Below are positions 1-64,000 of a stretch of DNA of 64,000 nt, in pieces. Both the position numbers and the translations under genes were made by a program. Below the pieces are notes generated by a model. It was not told where the DNA came from. It was given only the letters and a program-made list of their open reading frames with translations, and did no database searches. Numbering within the stretch: position 1 is the first letter of the stretch; each line of letters begins with the position of its first letter. The DNA is from Anolis carolinensis (taxonomy: Eukaryota), in contig NC_085845.1 in assembly GCF_035594765.1 (NCBI RefSeq), forward strand, positions 169,462,897 to 169,526,896, in the 5' to 3' direction.

Positions 1-3000
1 TTTGTCAGAGAATATTGTCCCCTCTTTTGCTGTGGTTATGCCTTCGTGTTGAGGCATGCGTGAAAGAGCATCTGCCAAGACATTCTGCTTCCCTTGAAAA
101 AACTTTAATTGGAAATCGAATCTGCTGAAGTATTGCGCCCATCTAATTTGTTTGGGAGATAATTTTCTAGGAGATTTTAAATACTGGAGGTTCTTATGGT
201 CAGACCAAATTTCAAATGGGATTCCGCTTCCTTCGAGGAAGTGTCGCCAGCATTCTAAGGCTTTTAATATGGCTAATGCCTCTTTTTCCCATATTGGCCA
301 ACTTTTTTCAGTTTCGCTGAACTTCCGGGACAAATATCCACAGGGTTTTAAGTTCCCATTTTGATCTTTTTGCAATAGTACTGCCCCGTATGCACAGTCT
401 GAGGCATCGCAATGGATTATGAAAGGGCTCCTGATATCGGGGTGTTTTAGGATGGGTCCTTCTGTGAAGCATTCTTTTAGGGTTTCGAATGCCTTTTGGC
501 ATTCTGGCGTCCAACTTAGTCTGGCGCCAGGAGCTTTTACTTTTGCTGTCTCCCCTTTCCCTTTTGTTTTTAAAAGTTCAGTAAGGGGTGCGGTTATTTG
601 CGCGAAGCCTTTTATGAAGGGTCTGTAAAAATTTGCAAACCCCAGGAATGATTGCAATTGCCTCCTTGTTTGAGGCACTCCCCATTCTTTCACATCTGAT
701 ACTTTAGCTGGATCCATAGCTAGCCCTTCTGGAGATATCCGATACCCCAGAAAGTCAATTTGAGTTTTATTAAATTCACATTTGGACAGTTTTGCGTACA
801 GCTTTGCTTCCCTTAGTCTCTGCAAAACTTCCCGGACCAATTTTACGTGCTTTTCCTTATCTTCACTCACGATCAAGATATCATCAAGGAATATGAATAC
901 CCCTCTGTACAACAATGGGTGTAGTATTTCATTTATAAGCTGCATAAAGCAACCGCCTCCATTTTTTAAACCGAAAGGCAAAATTTTATATTCAAAATGG
1001 CCGAATGCGCAGGAAAATGCAGTTTTCCAAGTATCCTCCGGTTTTATTCTTAATTTATGATACGCTTCAATTAAATCCAGTTTAGTAAATATGCTCCCTT
1101 TCTTCAATACGGTAATTAAATCCTTTACTAAGGGCATAGGGTATTTATTGTCCTTAGTAATTGCGTTTAAATTTCGATAATCAATGCACAATCGTAGGGA
1201 GTTGTCTTTCTTTCTCCTAAATAATACTGGGGCCCCGAGAGGAGAGTTGGATGGCTTAATGAAGCCTCGCGCCAGGTTTTTATCAATATATTTCCTCAAT
1301 TCCTCCTTCTCCTGCACAGACATGGGATACACTTTTGGTTTTGGTAAGTTTGCTCCTGGGGTTATTTCAATTTCTACTTCTATATTCCTTTTGGGAGGCA
1401 ATTTACTGGCCTCTTTCTGATTGAAAACATCCACAAAGTCTCTGTATTCAGGTGGCAATAGCTGTGGGTTTATCTCACCTGCTTCATCTTCCTCGTCCTC
1501 CTCTTCTGCAATTTTGCTTATCTCCCATTGCGTCTGCTGTTCTTTGAATGCTAGGCTCTTTCCTCTCCAATCTACTTCAGGATTTGCCTGTTCGAGCCAT
1601 GGTATCCCTAATATTACGTGGTATGTGGCAATAGGGGCTATTACAAAGGATATTCTTCCTTCCCATTTGCCTATTTTACATGGGACCCCCCGTATTTCCT
1701 TTGTAGATACTTCCCCAGCAGCGACTGATCCATCTAGCTGCGAAAATGCAATTGGGGAGTCAAGCGCCATCTGCTGGCATTTCAGCGCTCCTGCTAATTC
1801 CGGAGTTATAATATTTCTAGAACAACCACAATCCACAAATGCCTTGCAGGTGGCCCGATTCTCTAGCCCCGAGAGGCAGATTGGCACTACTATCATGCGT
1901 TTGTCCCGACTCACCAATTTTTCTGAAGATTCTGGGGCCTGCACCTCCTCTTCCGCGCGCCTCCCGGTTGCTGGCTTGGGCTTTGGGGGTTTTGGCGGCT
2001 CCCCCTTCCGGGCCCAGCATTCTGCTGCTCGATGGCCCGTCTTCCCACATACAAAGCATCCCGGTTTAGGTTTGTTGTCGTCTCCTCTGGAGGGAATCCC
2101 CGGCCTCCCTCCGGGTCTTTCCTGCTTCCTCGTTTCTCCTCGACCTCTCGCCACCGGTCTTTGCTGGCCGCTGCTGCTCCTGAAGCGCTTTACTTGGGCC
2201 AGGGTGGATTCGACGCGCCCCGCTAGTTGAATCCATCCCTGGAGCGTTTCGGGGTCATCTCTGTGCGCTGCCCAGCTGAAAATCTCGGGGCGTAGTCCCT
2301 CTTTAAATAACTCCACTTTGGTCACTTCAGACCACTCTGGTACCCTTTCCGCGAGGTGGAGGAATTCCTCTGCGTACTCGGGCACTGTTTTGTCCCTCTG
2401 CTTTATTCCTTTCAGCTGGTCTCGAGCCCTCAATTGCTCTAGCCGGTCTCTGAACCGGTTTTCCAGTGCGGCGAGGAAGCGGGGCACTGACCTCAGGCAT
2501 GGGTCGTGTCTGGCATGGAGTTGCACGTACCAGCTGGCTGCTCCTCGCTTTAGTGTGTTGCCGATGGCTCGAACCCTGCTTGCTTCGGAGGGGAATGTGT
2601 GTGCATTGTCTTCCATGTATCCTCTGATGCTAATTAGAAAAAAGTTCAGTTCATCTGATTCCCCTCCGTATTCCAGTTTGAGATCTTCCCTTCTTGGCAT
2701 CCATTCTGCGGCCCGTTGATGCTGTCTGGGAGGCATGGGGAAGGGTTGCATCAGGTTTCCTCGGGCGGCTCCTTGGAACACGCCGCGCCCCACTCCGGTG
2801 GTCATTCTGCGCGGCTCCCGAAAGTCTGCCGCCGCTGTCGGCCCTTCCGCCCATCCGCATACTGGCCTCGCTGTAGCCCCCTCATCTCGCCTTTCCTCGT
2901 CGTACGGCACTTCCTCCTCCTCTTCCTGGATCCCCCGCTCCTCTCCGCCTTCGTCTGCAAATCCACTGGACCCGATCCCTGGCCCCAGTGGCCTTTCCAC

Positions 3001-3543
3001 CCCGACGCCCATTCGGGGGGTTGGGAGCTCTGTTGGAGATGGCGGCCTCAGAGTTCCCAGAGCTCGCTGGCGCTCCACTTCGCGCGCCATTCTGTCTCGG
3101 AACTCCAGCTCCTGCCAGTATTCCTCATCTCCCTCGTCCCTTGCCGCCACGGGACTCTGCGTTGACGCTCGCTGGCCCCTCTGGCTCCAATCTCCTTCTT
3201 TACTTGGCTCTCTCTCGGCGCCATATCGGATGGGCTCCTTTTGGAGATTCTCTTCCAATAGTGGCACCAACCTCCCCACGGTTTCCGACAGCCTGGATAA
3301 ATTTGTTTCCAGGATGGATAACCGCAGGGCCACGGTCTCCGGCATACTTCCTCCAGATCCCCAACTGGTTTCTGCAGCCGCAGAGACGCCTCTTCCTCCC
3401 CTGGGAATCCTCTGGGTCACGCCGTTCGGCCTGGGGTACCCCGTAGAGGAAGCTATGGCTTGCAGCGTCTCTTCTCTCTTCGGCCGGGCCCCTTGCAAAG
3501 GCCTCCCTGCCCCATTTGGGCTTTGATCTCCTTCTTCACTCAT
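1..3543 (-). CDS. Ty3/gypsy (Tf1/sushi-like) gag-pol polyprotein, single ORF, 3' part (integrase) outside window
   Basis: ATG at 3543 (MSEEGDQSPNG...). One frame carries a PEG10/sushi-like capsid region (..FLISIRGYMEDNAHTFPSEASRVRAIGNTL..KVELFKEGLRPEI), CCHC knuckle CFVCGKTGHRAAEC (from 2058), protease FVDCGCSRNI (~1839), RT VFIFLDDILI (from 900) and RNase H HCDASDCAYGAVL..WEKEALAI..DHKNL..NVLADALSR. Absent from the ORF track, consistent with no stop before position 1. Confidence 0.93.
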   Translation of the reverse strand, partial: MSEEGDQSPNGAGRPLQGARPKREETLQAIASSTGYPRPNGVTQRIPRGGRGVSAAAETSWGSGGSMPETVALRLSILETNLSRLSETVGRLVPLLEENLQKEPIRYGAEREPSKEGDWSQRGQRASTQSPVAARDEGDEEYWQELEFRDRMAREVERQRALGTLRPPSPTELPTPRMGVGVERPLGPGIGSSGFADEGGEERGIQEEEEEVPYDEERRDEGATARPVCGWAEGPTAAADFREPRRMTTGVGRGVFQGAARGNLMQPFPMPPRQHQRAAEWMPRREDLKLEYGGESDELNFFLISIRGYMEDNAHTFPSEASRVRAIGNTLKRGAASWYVQLHARHDPCLRSVPRFLAALENRFRDRLEQLRARDQLKGIKQRDKTVPEYAEEFLHLAERVPEWSEVTKVELFKEGLRPEIFSWAAHRDDPETLQGWIQLAGRVESTLAQVKRFRSSSGQQRPVARGRGETRKQERPGGRPGIPSRGDDNKPKPGCFVCGKTGHRAAECWARKGEPPKPPKPKPATGRRAEEEVQAPESSEKLVSRDKRMIVVPICLSGLENRATCKAFVDCGCSRNIITPELAGALKCQQMALDSPIAFSQLDGSVAAGEVSTKEIRGVPCKIGKWEGRISFVIAPIATYHVILGIPWLEQANPEVDWRGKSLAFKEQQTQWEISKIAEEEDEEDEAGEINPQLLPPEYRDFVDVFNQKEASKLPPKRNIEVEIEITPGANLPKPKVYPMSVQEKEELRKYIDKNLARGFIKPSNSPLGAPVLFRRKKDNSLRLCIDYRNLNAITKDNKYPMPLVKDLITVLKKGSIFTKLDLIEAYHKLRIKPEDTWKTAFSCAFGHFEYKILPFGLKNGGGCFMQLINEILHPLLYRGVFIFLDDILIVSEDKEKHVKLVREVLQRLREAKLYAKLSKCEFNKTQIDFLGYRISPEGLAMDPAKVSDVKEWGVPQTRRQLQSFLGFANFYRPFIKGFAQITAPLTELLKTKGKGETAKVKAPGARLSWTPECQKAFETLKECFTEGPILKHPDIRSPFIIHCDASDCAYGAVLLQKDQNGNLKPCGYLSRKFSETEKSWPIWEKEALAILKALECWRHFLEGSGIPFEIWSDHKNLQYLKSPRKLSPKQIRWAQYFSRFDFQLKFFQGKQNVLADALSRMPQHEGITTAKEGTIFSDK

Positions 3544-3583
3544 TATCACTTCACTGCGAATTCCGCAGGAGGGTGAGAACTGG

Positions 3584-3594
3584 ATTCTCGACTT
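3584..3594 (-). promoter_or_regulatory. Primer-binding site complementary to LTR positions 3700-3690 (self-priming type)
   Basis: Minus-strand AAGTCGAGAAT, 3 nt inside the LTR boundary, is the exact reverse complement of minus-strand ATTCTCGACTT at 3700-3690. Confidence 0.8.
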
Positions 3595-3597
3595 AAA

Positions 3598-3959
3598 TGT
3601 CAGGCTCACTTCAAAGGACCAGTCTGAACGCAGATCAAAGATAGCTGCTCTCAAATCCAATCTTTATTGAAGAATACATGACTTTGGAAAAGTCGAGAAT
3701 GACCTAATGTTTACATACATCTAATTTTATCACTTCTGATGCAACGTAATACCACACGCAAATATCGTCATCAAATCCCACCCCCTGGATCACATTACTA
3801 CCATTCCCACACACTACATCAATTATAATTGTTTATACTTTCAACCCTGAGTTCCCAGGCCCATTTTATCTTCTCCCGCCAGGTGCTTGCAGGATTGTTT
3901 ATGTTATGAAGTCAGATTCAGGGCTTGGAAATTCAGCCCTGGGATCTGGCTCCATGACA
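3598..3959 (-). repeat. 5' LTR (362 bp)
   Basis: Termini TGTCATGG (3959) ... GCCTGACA (3598) on minus; TATA-like GATAAAA ~3731-3725; AATAAA 3668-3663. The second LTR is outside the window. Confidence 0.8.
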
Positions 3960-52902: not shown

Positions 52903-53617
52903 GGCTGGATCTACACTGCCATATAATCCAGTTACTGAAACTGCTTTGAACTGCATTATATGAGTCTACCCTATCATATAATTCAGTTCAAAGCAGATGA
53001 TGTGGATTCAGAAACTGTTTTATATGGCAGTGTAGATGGTGCCTTAGATCTCTTGATGAATAACAGCATCGAATACAGGTCACTAGAGTACAAGAATAAT
53101 TATTACACCACATAAACTGCTTTTAAACATGACCTGGCCACTTTTTGAAAGCAGAATGCTGCACTTGACAGGGCTCGGAGGCTCCTTCTACACTATCACA
53201 AAATCCAGATTATCAAAGCAGATAATCCACATCTGCTTTGAACTGGATTATATGAGTCTACACTGCCTATACAGTTCAAAACAGAATATCTGGATTCAGA
53301 AACTGAATTACTGTATATAGCAGTGTAGATGGGGCCTTAGATCCCTTGCTGAATAATAGCATGGAATACAGGTCACTAGGGTACAAGAATGATTACTCTG
53401 CATAAACTCCTTTAAAATATGAATTGGCAACTTTGTGAAAAAAGAATGCTGCATGTGACAGGGCTTGGAGGACCTTTCTACACTGCCACACAATCCAGAT
53501 TATCAAATCAGATAATCCACATTATTTGCTTTGAACTGGATTATATGAGTCTACACTGTCATATAATTCATTTCAAAGCATATAATCTGGATTTTATATG
53601 GCAGTGTAGAAGGGGCC
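52903..53617. repeat. ~293-bp tandem duplication containing CTACACTGCCATATAATCCAG-type MITE units
   Basis: GCCTTAGATC..GAATACAGGTCACTAG.. recurs at 53041 and 53334. Confidence 0.8.
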
Positions 53618-57427: not shown

Positions 57428-58219
57428 TTACCACCTTTCTCCTCTCTTTGGACTATCCAGCCATTCCTTTCTCACCTCTGCAATCTCCTGACCATACCAA
57501 TCATGCAATTTTGAGAAACATGTTGTCTCGGGAGACACAGGACTTTCTTGCCCAGGAGAGGCAAGGCCAGAAGCGATGCCTCCACTCACGTTGCTGCCTG
57601 TGGGTTTGCGACGCGGAGGCAAAGGAGGAGGTTTTAAATGTTCCAAAGAGACAACGTCTGTAAAAGTGCAGCCACTATCCCACGTGGAAGACCCATTCTC
57701 TAAGATGACAGGGTGCTCCTTGACTGGTACCATGGCCGGATTGGAGAGATGTCTCTTGCGCACAGAGGTGGCTTTCTTGGGTAATTTGTGGCAGGTGACT
57801 AAACTCTTCCGGGCCTCCTCCAGTTGTTTTTCGAGTTCCTTAACTACTAGCCTCATGTAATCAAAGCTGGCTCGAGACAGTGCCTTCACCCAAGCCTCCA
57901 TAGCCGCTTGGCAGTCAGCAACCAACACATAAGCCTTGCCCCCAGCGCCATCAAAACAGATGGCGAAGGCAAACTCCTCAGCAGCCTCACACAGCTCCAC
58001 AGTGCAACCCTCGAGCACAATGAGACCCAGCGGCTCACGGCTCTCCCGGTCTTCAAAATAGAATAGCAAGTTGCCCTTCAGGATGAACCAGCGGCGATGG
58101 TAAGAAGTGGTGTGGTGATGGTGATGGTGTCGCTCCACACGTTTGCACAGAAAGCCAGTATGGTCTACTGGAGAGTTACATGTGGCATAATGTGCCACGC
58201 TACGTTCATTCAGCTTCAT
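57428..58219 (-). CDS. PHETA2: Sesquipedalian-2 / PH domain endocytic trafficking adaptor 2 (FAM109B), single coding exon, 263 aa
   Basis: MKLNERSVAHYA start, PH domain (RRWFILKGNLLFYFE..LEGCTVEL..AWVKALSRASF), coiled coil, PPPLPPRR, F&H motif CFSKLHDWYGQEI. PHETA2 rather than PHETA1 by adjacency to SMDT1/NDUFA6. Confidence 0.93.
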   Translation of the reverse strand: MKLNERSVAHYATCNSPVDHTGFLCKRVERHHHHHHTTSYHRRWFILKGNLLFYFEDRESREPLGLIVLEGCTVELCEAAEEFAFAICFDGAGGKAYVLVADCQAAMEAWVKALSRASFDYMRLVVKELEKQLEEARKSLVTCHKLPKKATSVRKRHLSNPAMVPVKEHPVILENGSSTWDSGCTFTDVVSLEHLKPPPLPPRRKPTGSNVSGGIASGLASPGQESPVSPETTCFSKLHDWYGQEIAEVRKEWLDSPKRGERW

Positions 58220-59346: not shown

Positions 59347-59606
59347 TTTCTCCAGAGGTTCTGAAAGCCAAGTATGGAAAAAGTGGCTTGTAGAGGAGGG
59401 TTTTTTTGTGATTGGCTTCATTTGAGAGGAAATTGTACTTGAAGGCACATCACAAGAACACACTTAGGGCATTACATGGCTCTTCCCCTTGTTGATTCAA
59501 AGTATCTTAAGAGTTTATGTACATTTGATGCCACTTTCACTACCAAGGCTCAATGCTATGAAATCTGGGGAGCTGTACTTTTTAGCCTTCTCTGTCAAGC
59601 TACAAC
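59347..59606 (+). repeat. Local ~260-bp duplication; empty-site copy of 60738-60921 + 62119-62194
   Basis: High identity across the junction; single ATTTGATG at 59523-59530. Confidence 0.9.
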
Positions 59607-59997: not shown

Positions 59998-60921
59998 CAC
60001 AAACAGGAATATCTTCCTACACCTCTTTAGCAAGCAGAAAGCGAACTGGCAGCATCCCTTGGGAGGTTCTCCTGTATATAGAGCCCCAGGCAGCAGATAC
60101 TGTAGGGTGCAACATGAAGTTTGATCATTGGGCCCCTCAACTAGTTTGCTAAGGCCGAAATGCTTTTGAGAAAGAGCTTTTCAAAGTTTTTTCAAACTCA
60201 TGAGCTTGCCTAGGTTTCTTTAGGGCATCTGGAGCTGGGTCTACATTGCCATTTAGTGTAGTTTGGAACGGCATTATATGGTGTAGTGGAGACATGGTAA
60301 TGCAGTTAAACCATTATATGGATTTACACTGAATTATGAGACAGTGCAGATCCAGCTTGGGACAGAAGATGGTTTGGAAGTCAAGGCCGAGCCACCTATT
60401 TAAAAAAAACAGTTTTGAAAATGTTTAAATGTGAAGTAAGGAGTCTTACCTTGCTGAAATATTGGAGATCTAACGCTCAGGATTCAATCTGATCATCAGT
60501 TAGTTGTCTCCGCTTTCGTTTTGGTTGTCTCAGTAGTTTTTTCCCCCTCTCCTCTTCCTTTTCTCTCTGGCTATTATTGGTGTGGATGTTTATAGTGCAA
60601 AACCCGGAACATGGGACAGTCCCTGGAATAGCCAATGCAGGACCCTTTGGGGGTAGCTCTTCGGAGATCCAGGTTTTCCAGCAACCTCGCATCAGAGAAA
60701 GCAGATTTCTCTTTCCCTCCCTCCCTCCCTTCCCTCTTTTCTCCAGAGGTCCTGAAAGCCACGTATAGAAAAAAGTGGCTTGTAGGGGAGTTTTTTTTGT
60801 GATTGGCCTCTTTTGAGAGGAAATTATACTTGAAGGCACATCACAAGAACACACTTAAAGCATTACATGGTTCTTCCCCTTATTGATTCAAAGTATCTTA
60901 AGAGTTTATGTACATTTGATG

Positions 60922-62110
60922 CAGGGCCGGCCGGAGATATTTTTTAATGGGAAGCGGGGGTGCTGAAAAGCGCCCCCGCCACCCGCGCCCTGGCCCCGCC
61001 CAGCGTGCCCTGGCCCCGCCTCCCACGCTGCGTGGGAGGCGGGGCCAGGGCGATTAGTGAGGGGGGCGGGGCCACAGTTGGCCCCGCCCCCGCCCAGCGT
61101 GGCCATTTTGCCCTTAGTAACAAACTAAGGGCAAAAATGGCTTATCTGGCTGTGCGCATGCGCACAGCCAGATAAGCCATTTTTGCCCTTAGTTTGTTAC
61201 TAAGGGCAAAATGGCCTAGGTGTGCTGTGCGCACGCGCACAGCACACCTAGGCCATTCGGGCCTGACTTCCTGGTCGCGGCCGGCGACCGCCCGGGCGAT
61301 CGCCGGCCGCGACCAGGAAGTCAGGCCCGAATGGGCTATCTGCGCTGTGCGCACGGGCACAGCGCAGATAGCCCATTCGGGCCTGACTTCCTGGTCGCGG
61401 CCGGCGATCGCCCGGGCGGTCGCCGGCCGCGACCAGGAAGTCAGGCCCGAATGGCCTAGGTGTGCTGTGCGCGTGCGCACAGCACACCTAGGCCATTTTG
61501 CCCTTAGTAACAAACTAAGGGCAAAAATGGCTTCTCTGGCTGTGCGCATGCGCACAGCCAGAGAAGCCATTTTTGCCCTTAGTTTGTTACTAAGGGCAAA
61601 ATGGCCTAGGTGTGCTGTGCGCACGCGCACAGCACACCTAGGCCATTCGGGCCTGACTTCCTGGTCGCGGCCGGCGACCGCCCGGGCGATCGCCGGCCGC
61701 GACCAGGAACTTCCTGGTCGCGGCCGGCGATCGCCCGGGCGGTCGCCGGCCGCGACCAGGAAGTCAGGCCCGAATGGCCTAGCTGTGCTGTGCGCGTGCG
61801 CACAGCACAGCTAGGCCATTTTGCCCTTAGTAACAAACTAAGGGCAAAAATGGCTTCTCTGGCTGTGCGCATGCGCACAGCCAGAGAAGCCATTTTTGCC
61901 CTTAGTTTGTTACTAAGGGCAAAATGGCCTAGCTGTGCTGTGCGCACGCGCACAGCACAGCTAGGCCATTCGGGCCTGACTTCCTGGTCGCGGCCGGCGA
62001 CCGCCCGGGCGATCGCCGGCCGCGACCAGGAAGTCAGGCCCGAATGGCGCCCCTAGCAGCCAGCGCCCGAGGCGGCCGCGTCCGCGGCCGCCTAGTAACA
62101 ACCGGCCCTG
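60922..62110. mobile_element. Non-autonomous hAT-type DNA transposon (1189 bp) filled with a nested palindrome array
   Basis: TIR CAGGGCCGG / CCGGCCCTG; perfect 8-bp TSD ATTTGATG (60914-60921, 62111-62118); subterminal GCGCCC motifs; no coding capacity; very CpG-rich. Confidence 0.92.
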
Positions 62111-62301
62111 ATTTGATGCCACTTTCACTGCCAAGGCTCAATGCTATGAAATCTGGGGAGCTGTACTTTTTAGCCTTCTCTGTCAAGCTACAACTTCCAT
62201 GTTTCCATAGCATTCAGCCAGGATGGTTAAAGTGGGTGCAAACTGCATTCATTCTACAATGGGGATCTACCCTTATTTCCTTTGGTACTGATGTTTCAAC
62301 C

Positions 62302-62470
62302 CAAGCATGGGCAAACTTGGGCCCTCCGGGTGTTTTGGACTCCAACTCCCACCATTCCTAACAGCCTCAGCTTAAGCGGCTGAGGGGGAAAAGGAAAGGG
62401 CCTGAGGCTGTTAGGAATGGTGGGAGTTGGAGTCCAAAACACCCGGAGGGCCCAAATTTGTTCATGTCTG
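62302..62470. mobile_element. Palindromic hAT MITE (same family as 24687-24844)
   Basis: CAAGCATGGGCAAAC..GGGCCCAAATTTGTTCATGTCTG arms. Confidence 0.75.
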
Positions 62471-63177
62471 TTTTGTCTTATCTGGATTTGAAATAGTTGC
62501 AAAACAGCAACACAAAACCTCGTATTAAACAGTTCTTCTATTTAACAAAGGTTTGATTTCTCTTTATAGGACACATAACAATAGAACAACTCTCTGCAAC
62601 CGGAAAGGATTTTCTTCTCTTGCGAAAGGCCTGCTGTATGAAAATATAAACAAAGAAAATGCTGATTTAACACTTTGACTCATTATTTTCACTTACAGTC
62701 ACAAGAGGGCACCACTGTCCCATATGTACAACTGGAGTAAAAAAGGCTCTTCAATCACGAATCAAAGAGTACCAGTTTCCCCAAGTGTATCTAAGACAAT
62801 GGCAGTGAAATAAAAAGACTTTTGCTGACAGTAGAATCAGAACTTTCTAAGTTCTTACCAAACTCCCAACATGGTGTCGTGGGGGAAACGCTGGGCTAGG
62901 GAATTATATAGAAAAGCCTTTGAGATATTTTAGAAATAGAAACCCACTATCCTTGGTATTTGACAAGAATTAGTAATGGGTGAGTGAAAACAACTTTCAC
63001 ATTTTTGGGGCAAACATTATTTCATTGTGGCATACTGCATCAAGGTGGTTTGCAATAATAACTTGGTCTGCAAAAAACAAAATTGCGTCCTTGTTTCATT
63101 TTTCTTCTTCTCTAGGCCTTCACCTTCATTCATTCTTTATGGCTAAAGCAAATTTCCCATTGTAAACAAAGGGCATA

Positions 63178-64000
63178 TCTGGGTTGCTGTGAGTTTTCCA
63201 GGCTGTATGGCCATGTTCCAGAAGCATTCTCTCCTGACATTTTGGCAGGCATACTCAGAGGTTGTGAGGTGTTGGAAAATAGGAAAATGGGGTTTATATA
63301 TCTGTGGAATGTCCAGGGTGGAAAAAAGAAGTCTTGCCTGTTGGAGGCAAGTGGGAATGTTGCAATTGATCACCTTGATTAGCATTGAATGACCTTGCAG
63401 CTTCAAAGCTTAGCTGCTTCCTGCCTCGGGAAATCCTTTGTTGAGAGGATGAACCAACCTGGGCACAGCATATTATTTGAGAACACAGAAAGGCTAGACC
63501 ACGCTAACAACTACCATGTCAGACTATACAGAGAAGCCATTGAAATCTACAAGCATGTGGACAATTTCAACAGAAAGGCAAAAACCATGAAAATGAACAA
63601 AATCTGGCTGCCAGTATTTTAAAAACTCTAAAATCAGGACAGTAAATAAAGAACACCTCTCAGAAAACAAAGGAATTCCAGACATGAATCAATCAGGGCC
63701 AGCTAACACCTCCCAACAAAGGATTCCCTGAGGCAGGAAGCAGCCAAAGTTTGAAGCTGCAAGGCTATTCAATGCTAATCAAGGTGATTAACTGCAACAT
63801 TCACACTTGCTTCAAACACAAGAATCCTTTCTCCCACCCTGGACATTCCACAGATATATAAACCCCACTTAGTTTCCAACAAACCTCAAAACCTCTGAAG
63901 ATGCTTGCCATAGATGTGGGTGAAACATCAGGAGGGAATGCTCCTAGAACATGGCCATACTGCCCGGAAAACTCACAGCAACCCAGTGATTTCAGCCATG
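63178..64000. mobile_element. Penelope-like element with inverted pLTR arms (runs off right edge)
   Basis: Arm 63178-63447 is the reverse complement of ~63710-63986; the middle encodes NQPGHSILFENTERLDHANNYHVRLYREAIEIYKHVDNFNRK. Confidence 0.87.

Follow-up and report, generated by a model that had tools for sequence, protein, structure and literature searches.

How did an array of hairpins that runs alternately forward and backward come to stand in the middle of non-coding DNA, and have its arms been copied onto one another? The question is raised by the segment shown above, which lies in a window (the whole stretch of DNA analysed) of 64,000 nucleotides. An earlier note, made from the letters alone, had proposed that a rolling-hairpin-like or iterative template-switch process builds and homogenises the array, and that its variants record a left-to-right growth history.

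The array proved to fill the inside of a non-coding insertion of 1,189 bp at 60922-62110, the boundaries of which are as follows.

60914-60921: left 8-bp TSD, ATTTGATG; the 8-mer is single in the intact host-repeat paralog at 59347-59606
60922-60930, plus strand: left 9-bp TIR, CAGGGCCGG; family contigs with unlike flanks end exactly at 60922
62102-62110, minus strand: right 9-bp TIR, complementary to the left one
62111-62118: right 8-bp TSD, ATTTGATG, a direct copy of the left 8-mer

The insertion splits a host repeat, of which the paralog at 59347-59606 preserves the empty site at 94% identity over 261 bp. The two are copies, 94% identical, of a segment of about 260 bp that is duplicated locally (59347-59606 and 60738-62194), and the insertion stands in the second. 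With a TIR that starts YARNG and a TSD that conforms to NNTNNANN, the element has a combination of terminus and target that is entered for the Anolis orphan families hAT-N7 and N8 in Table 1 of PMC3014272; at 9 bp, the TIR is slightly shorter than the 10-25 bp given for hAT elements in PMC3942097. The CpG o/e is 0.92 in the element compared with 0.28 in the rest of the window, so this copy is young or freshly recopied, and CpG decay is absent among its repeats.

Coding capacity was judged from two open frames of the element, of 107 and 212 aa. A protein search with the former gave no match (5 candidates), and the sole HMMER match of the latter was an unrelated bacterial-type repeat protein (P0005), TPR-like by eye; neither frame searched gives the element a coding capacity at odds with a non-autonomous hAT. 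No further copies were found in the 64-kb window by blastn and a TIR search, and exact-pattern scans of metagenome contigs returned no match to the element. A hAT relic at 27036-28433, which we take to be Tip-like, holds a 5'-truncated transposase (PF05699) with one in-frame stop, and its right end reads CAGGCCTGTAGCCAGG on the minus strand; as an autonomous partner it was ruled out by its different end, CAGGCCTGTAG. Judged by its sequence, the element is likely a young hAT-type transposon copy of the non-autonomous kind, for which a transposase would be supplied from another locus; among such elements its iterated inverted-repeat interior is unusual. None of the titles and abstract openings listed in a literature search describes it, though Repbase or Dfam may already include it.

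In order to map the interior, modules were delimited at their common ATGG/CCAT joints, with the following result.

60931-61106: 5' subterminal GC-rich region, with three 20-bp repeats at 60974-61033 and the deepest family coverage
61007-61051 and 61062-61091: subterminal hairpins H1 and H2, within 60931-61106
61107-61136, 61137-61180 and 61181-61210: A+, B1 and A-; B1 is a perfect palindrome and a turning point
61211-61256 and 61257-61330: C1+ and D+; D has a C.A mismatch at 61288/61299
61331-61376: hairpin E, of the B/C family, a turning point with an AC loop and an uncorrected G.G mismatch at 61351/61356
61377-61646: D- C1- A+ B2 A- C1+, with B2 at 61527-61570 as turning point
61647-61773: truncated D+ fused to truncated D-, the 67 bp centred on the second E being missing
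61774-62043: C2- A+ B2 A- C2+ D+, with B2 at 61850-61893 as turning point
62044-62101: 3' subterminal region, with a small hairpin at 62070-62093

The array reads A+ B1 A- C1+ D+ E D- C1- A+ B2 A- C1+ D+ (deletion) D- C2- A+ B2 A- C2+ D+, and can be laid out as 5'-A B [A C D] E [D C A] B [A C D] (E lost) [D C A] B [A C D]-3'. Its repeat unit, A-C-D, is 150 bp long and occurs five times in alternating orientation, forward and backward, with spacers of 0-2 bp, turning at hairpins B and E. Equally, the array is a 476-bp core followed by two 390-bp increments, the second without the 67 bp around E, and it doubles as a direct repeat with a period of 390/323. Hairpin E, the deletion of its second copy, the TIRs and the TSD are additions to what the earlier note described, and B, C and E form one hairpin family.

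The longest perfect arm reaches 175 bp in the element, compared with 16 bp elsewhere in the window. The last B2 is flanked by perfect arms of 158 bp across which C2 is mirrored, and the C copies are in perfect mirror identity across B2 and E. This identity fails across the deletion junction (61709-61711), which is also the boundary between C1 and C2. The junction has a 1-nt microhomology and forms a near-perfect turn with one unpaired base, 61710; on the bottom strand, the native D continues for one base beyond its end on the top strand.

The letters and positions on which the idea of mirrored mutations had been built were found to be exact. B1 starts CTTATCTGG at 61141 and its variant B2 is found at 61531 and 61854, while C1 was confirmed at 61215, 61455 and 61605 and C2 at 61778 and 61928. 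Among the three B and five C copies, the sole substitutions are two mirror pairs: 61144 A>C with 61173 T>G from B1 to B2 (B1 coordinates), and 61220 G>C with 61247 C>G from C1 to C2. The six A copies are identical to one another, as are the intact D copies. If a second change is taken to fall in the same module, the probability that it hits the mirror base with the complementary letter is about 0.0075 per pair, so pairing does go beyond chance. Across B1, B2, C1, C2 and E, 6 of the 7 variable stem columns are mirrored. The wider statement that variants always occur on both arms was too strong, however, as one-arm mismatches persist in three modules: a G at 61356 of E, opposed to the G at 61351, the C.A mismatch kept in all five D copies, and unequal T/A runs kept in all six A copies.

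We then turn to the relatives of this copy. The element is a dispersed multi-copy family, present in 19 of the 24 runs listed, which come from 7 studies under one species label, and up to 91% of the sampled element words were present in one run. Contigs matching the element numbered 12,258, 3,131, 1,782 and 653 in four of the 19 runs, from 4 studies, and were compared over 60870-61390, which covers the left end and one module set. In run X15, 22 contigs with unlike flanks end exactly at 60922. Flank coverage is absent in run X1 and present in the three other runs, but as the host repeat has a local paralog, this coverage does not speak for or against the insertion in other animals. The sum of contig depths was not taken as a copy number. 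These family data are unphased, depth-weighted short contigs with a listing cut-off of 2%, at which "not listed" is weaker than "absent"; one full copy was examined, and the others are known from such contigs.

Over the compared region, the base of C2 on the D-side arm of C (61247 C>G) makes up 91.7, 87.4, 85.6 and 86.8% of depth, with the C1-type base at 8-14%, and its mirror on the A-side arm (61220 G>C) was not listed at 2% in any of the four runs. The usual family C is therefore likely a G.G-mismatched hairpin, C1-type on its A side and C2-type on its D side, a deduction which assumes that both arms come from the same modules and which was not seen as one molecule. C1 and C2 would then likely be opposite corrections of one mismatch, not successive mutations. 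Since B1, B2 and E all have the C2-type base at the column of the C pair, a two-step history is suggested, in which a one-arm change spread in the family and was later either matched (C1) or undone (C2). B2 was not listed at 2% in any of the four runs and is for that reason likely derived; a flipped C loop was likewise not listed at 2% in any of them. In run X1, word-share comparisons for B2, the A-side C2 arm and the deletion junction gave P values of 0.04-0.11, which do not confirm the three features there.

Mismatches are common in the family as well. In each of the four runs, 30-55% of depth comes from a variant of D in which one arm has changed to give another G.G mismatch (61284/61303), and in three of them the A loop has an additional C (61118) at 27-36%. 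A T>A change at the centre of H1 (61029), which may be a loop flip or a point change, reaches 2.6-9.6%. Ten of the 22 family substitution rows fall in hairpin stems. A mirror partner was listed for two of these ten, which make up one CpG pair (61026/61032), and for the other eight none was listed, so most family variation is one-arm; the row in E could not be oriented. Modules are lost or shortened at some family joints (61211 to 61260, 61149 to 61199 and 61161 to 61250) and subterminal hairpins duplicated at others (61052 back to 61012 and 61085 back to 60994), which means that module order varies. The family thus departs from the pairing of substitutions across arms that the earlier note expected of it, but agrees with its expectation that module order is not invariant. 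Homogenisation can be upheld as an episodic process, not as a general one.

Taken together, these findings support copying from arm to arm by template switching, as the family data suggest that C1 and C2 are opposite corrections. Our preferred reading, to which we give a probability of roughly 0.6, combines a hAT transposase acting in trans, fold-back mirroring at B and E, and a switch and return at C. The interior would have been built and locally corrected by fold-back template switching, either during replication or in gap repair. On the long scale, a nascent strand may turn at B or E, or the palindromic 390-bp block may be re-copied, so that the sequence flanking B or E on one side would reappear in mirror image on the other; when B serves as the turn, a point change within it, as in B2, would be mirrored too. 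On the short scale, C1 could result from a brief switch and return in which the A-side arm was copied onto the D side, and C2 from a separate event in which the D-side arm was copied onto the A side. The AC loop would be left unflipped, as expected of an intrastrand switch, and each corrected C could then have spread through mirroring on the long scale. Such correction is occasional, because the other mismatches persist and 8 of the 10 family stem variants are one-arm. A similar outcome is described for hairpins of RNA genes, where template switching either makes one arm agree with the other or brings back the original pair (PMC8794818); the matching-or-restoring pattern also appears in bioRxiv 10.1101/2023.04.19.537475, and inverted repeats are reported as homogenised near promoters in yeast (PMC13100816).

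It also speaks against this reading that mismatch repair in an extruded hairpin, or gene conversion, would leave the same trace, and that plain tandem duplication of the 390-bp block yields an identical order. These processes can be joined in an account without fold-back, in which the 390-bp block arose once, grew by tandem duplication through unequal exchange or post-excision gap repair, and acquired its mirrored changes from hairpin or cruciform mismatch repair together with gene conversion. The 390/323 period of the direct repeat is what such growth would give, a G.G mispair could be repaired either way to C1 or C2, and inter-element recombination is on record for the hobo elements of Anolis (PMC3014272). 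However, inverted copying is still needed for A-B-A, for D-E-D and for the C2 mirrored across the last B, and the three other mismatches of the same array were never repaired. We regard this account as possible but unlikely.

As single-stranded DNA, the whole element has a predicted fold of -797 kcal/mol, a value that brings up the possibility that the perfected arms and the deletion junction were partly produced when so strong a palindrome was amplified for the library, cloned or assembled. Neither B2 nor the A-side C2 arm was listed in any of the four runs, the junction lies outside the compared 60870-61390, and small inverted triplications are described as lost in E. coli plasmids (PMC13334657). 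On the other hand, all module types, E included, are covered in all four runs, where the C1-type D-side base does occur at its 8-14%, and the word share in one run reaches the 91% given above. The insertion has undamaged flanks, TIRs and TSD, and the mirrored changes by which B, C and E differ are old. Hence we give the artefact little credence.

The alternation of orientations had been likened to the flip and flop isomers of viral termini. A, C and D do alternate, but only as the inverted layout predicts, since asymmetric parts must alternate when units run forward and backward. One relative orientation is seen at 5 of 5 A-C and 5 of 5 C-D junctions (10 of 10). The turning hairpins, which are the fair analogues of flip and flop, are a perfectly symmetric B and an E of which only one copy is intact. 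In alternating AAV concatemers, flip and flop are described as mutually independent and random (PMC11575299). A left-to-right history could not be established either: the step from B1 to B2 fits it, but the D-side base of C2 is the family majority, so that an array copying itself from left to right would have to regain the family allele at C. In the opposite direction, it would have to do so at B (B1). Two sister blocks joined together are as likely an origin as directional growth.

The rolling-hairpin-like replicon was not supported, given hAT ends and an element without coding capacity, terminal hairpins or independent internal flips. In its specific form, this explanation would make the interior a concatemer of a rolling-hairpin or dumbbell extrachromosomal intermediate with ends at B and E, captured between hAT ends. 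Tandem GAGC boxes are the Rep-site motif, and there is no GAGC or GCTC in the element, which excludes such tandem boxes. No homologous protein was found for the 107-aa and 212-aa frames, the hairpins are internal, and the core motif had no match in an exact-pattern scan of viral contigs. The 150-bp unit is without an evident origin, and its modules never flip independently. Nevertheless, such an intermediate would be expected to give what the array shows, units joined alternately head to head and tail to tail at two turning hairpins that stay the same (PMC11575299; PMC10766183). We consider this capture very improbable. A related idea, that the family routinely adds 390-bp inverted dimers to its interior by way of hairpin-capped (dumbbell) intermediates with B and E as the caps, also seems doubtful to us. 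If it were true, a cut-and-paste element would carry a fold-back amplifying module dense in CpG-island-type motifs, and hundreds to thousands of cruciform-prone, promoter-like islands would be seeded in a vertebrate genome.

The motif content of the element stands out from its surroundings. The element has eight GCGCAYGCGC, compared with none in the rest of the window; the corresponding counts are 12 and 6 for GCCATTTT, 9 and 3 for CAGGAAGT, and 2 and 0 for SP1-like motifs. We take GCGCAYGCGC to be NRF1-like, GCCATTTT YY1-like and CAGGAAGT ETS-like, all resembling sites of CpG-island factors. This density of palindromic factor-like motifs would be in line with independent point mutations that were retained because selection favours a hairpin RNA or a structure that binds protein. 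Against such selection, the copy is too young on its CpG values and its repeats without CpG decay, mismatches persist at high frequency in the family, and none of 64 Rfam matches, all sub-threshold hairpin matches, reaches its gathering score. Selection of this kind is hardly credible as the source of the pairs.

The window itself is eukaryotic, with about 40% GC and LINE fragments. On the minus strand, 57428-58219 holds an uninterrupted 263-aa sesquipedalian-2 frame with a PH domain, and 2.7 kb separate its start codon from the element, which is upstream. The 90% cluster of this protein includes the sesquipedalian-2 proteins of Sceloporus undulatus and Anolis sagrei, so the host is likely an iguanian lizard, perhaps Anolis carolinensis to judge by its repeat families. 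At 1-3663 on the minus strand, a gag-pol frame that looks Gypsy-like by eye stays open for at least 1,221 aa and runs past the window start, and a tandem repeat with a period of 290 and 2.2 copies is found at 52941-53593. Inverted-repeat pairs at 62297-62475, 63339-63818 and 63179-63986, with arms of 74-110 bp that are 88-91% complementary, are likely unrelated small elements or opposed retroelement ends.

The mechanisms invoked here are themselves already known. The case for correction of hairpins by template switching has mostly been built on single loci or on reconstructed trees, often with repeats excluded. A young, many-copy vertebrate transposon with standing mismatches, two turning points and both corrected forms would be a natural experiment, and such a family could yield the rate, direction and tract length of germ-line arm-to-arm copying as well as reveal how small inverted triplications iterate. 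Palindromes with perfect arms of 150-175 bp can travel in a mobile element.

Among known systems, the closest by its ends is the group hAT-N6, N7 and N8_AC of PMC3014272. These families share with the element a YARNG terminus, GCCGG in the TIR, the lack of an ORF, high copy number and very young age, and for hAT-N7 and N8_AC of Anolis carolinensis also an 8-bp TSD fitting NNTNNANN. Their TIR is CAGAGSCGGYCC (12 bp), compared with CAGGGCCGG (9 bp) here; relative to the former, the element has G for A at position 4, and only 9 bp are complementary. In length, its 1,189 bp contrast with 810, 288 and 329 bp. The main text of PMC3014272 has no occurrence of "palindrom" or "hairpin". The element was set apart from the three families by the published table, and the supplement may hold a related consensus.

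In its short-scale changes, the element resembles the correction of quasi-palindromes (PMC8794818; bioRxiv 10.1101/2023.04.19.537475; PMC13100816), in which a hairpin is perfected in one step, matched or restored, with the loop unflipped, as here; C1 and C2 each lie one mirror base from the inferred family C, in unphased data. Unlike those cases, both outcomes of one mismatch likely occur in one mobile element with many sister copies, and the polymorphism data of bioRxiv 10.1101/2023.04.19.537475 are described as leaving out events that overlap repeats. In its layout, the array is like the small inverted triplications of PMC13334657 and those produced by ODIRA (PMC10766183), with forward-reverse-forward segments at short inverted repeats; the mean segments given in PMC13334657, 148/160/148 bp, are near the 150-bp unit, and ODIRA is described as yielding inverted triplications through hairpin-capped DNA (PMC10766183). 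The array differs in having five segments, not three, in reusing two turning hairpins with spacers of 0-2 bp, and in lying inside a transposon with no replication origin evident. Concatemers of AAV and parvoviruses (PMC11575299, PMC3187698), the latter known for rolling-hairpin replication (PMC3187698), also have alternating units separated by hairpins, a likeness that is not mechanism-specific. The element, by contrast, is bounded by TIR and TSD and is without a Rep/NS1 gene, terminal hairpins or tandem Rep boxes, and whereas the orientations of AAV ITRs are described as independent, its internal modules are fixed to their neighbours.
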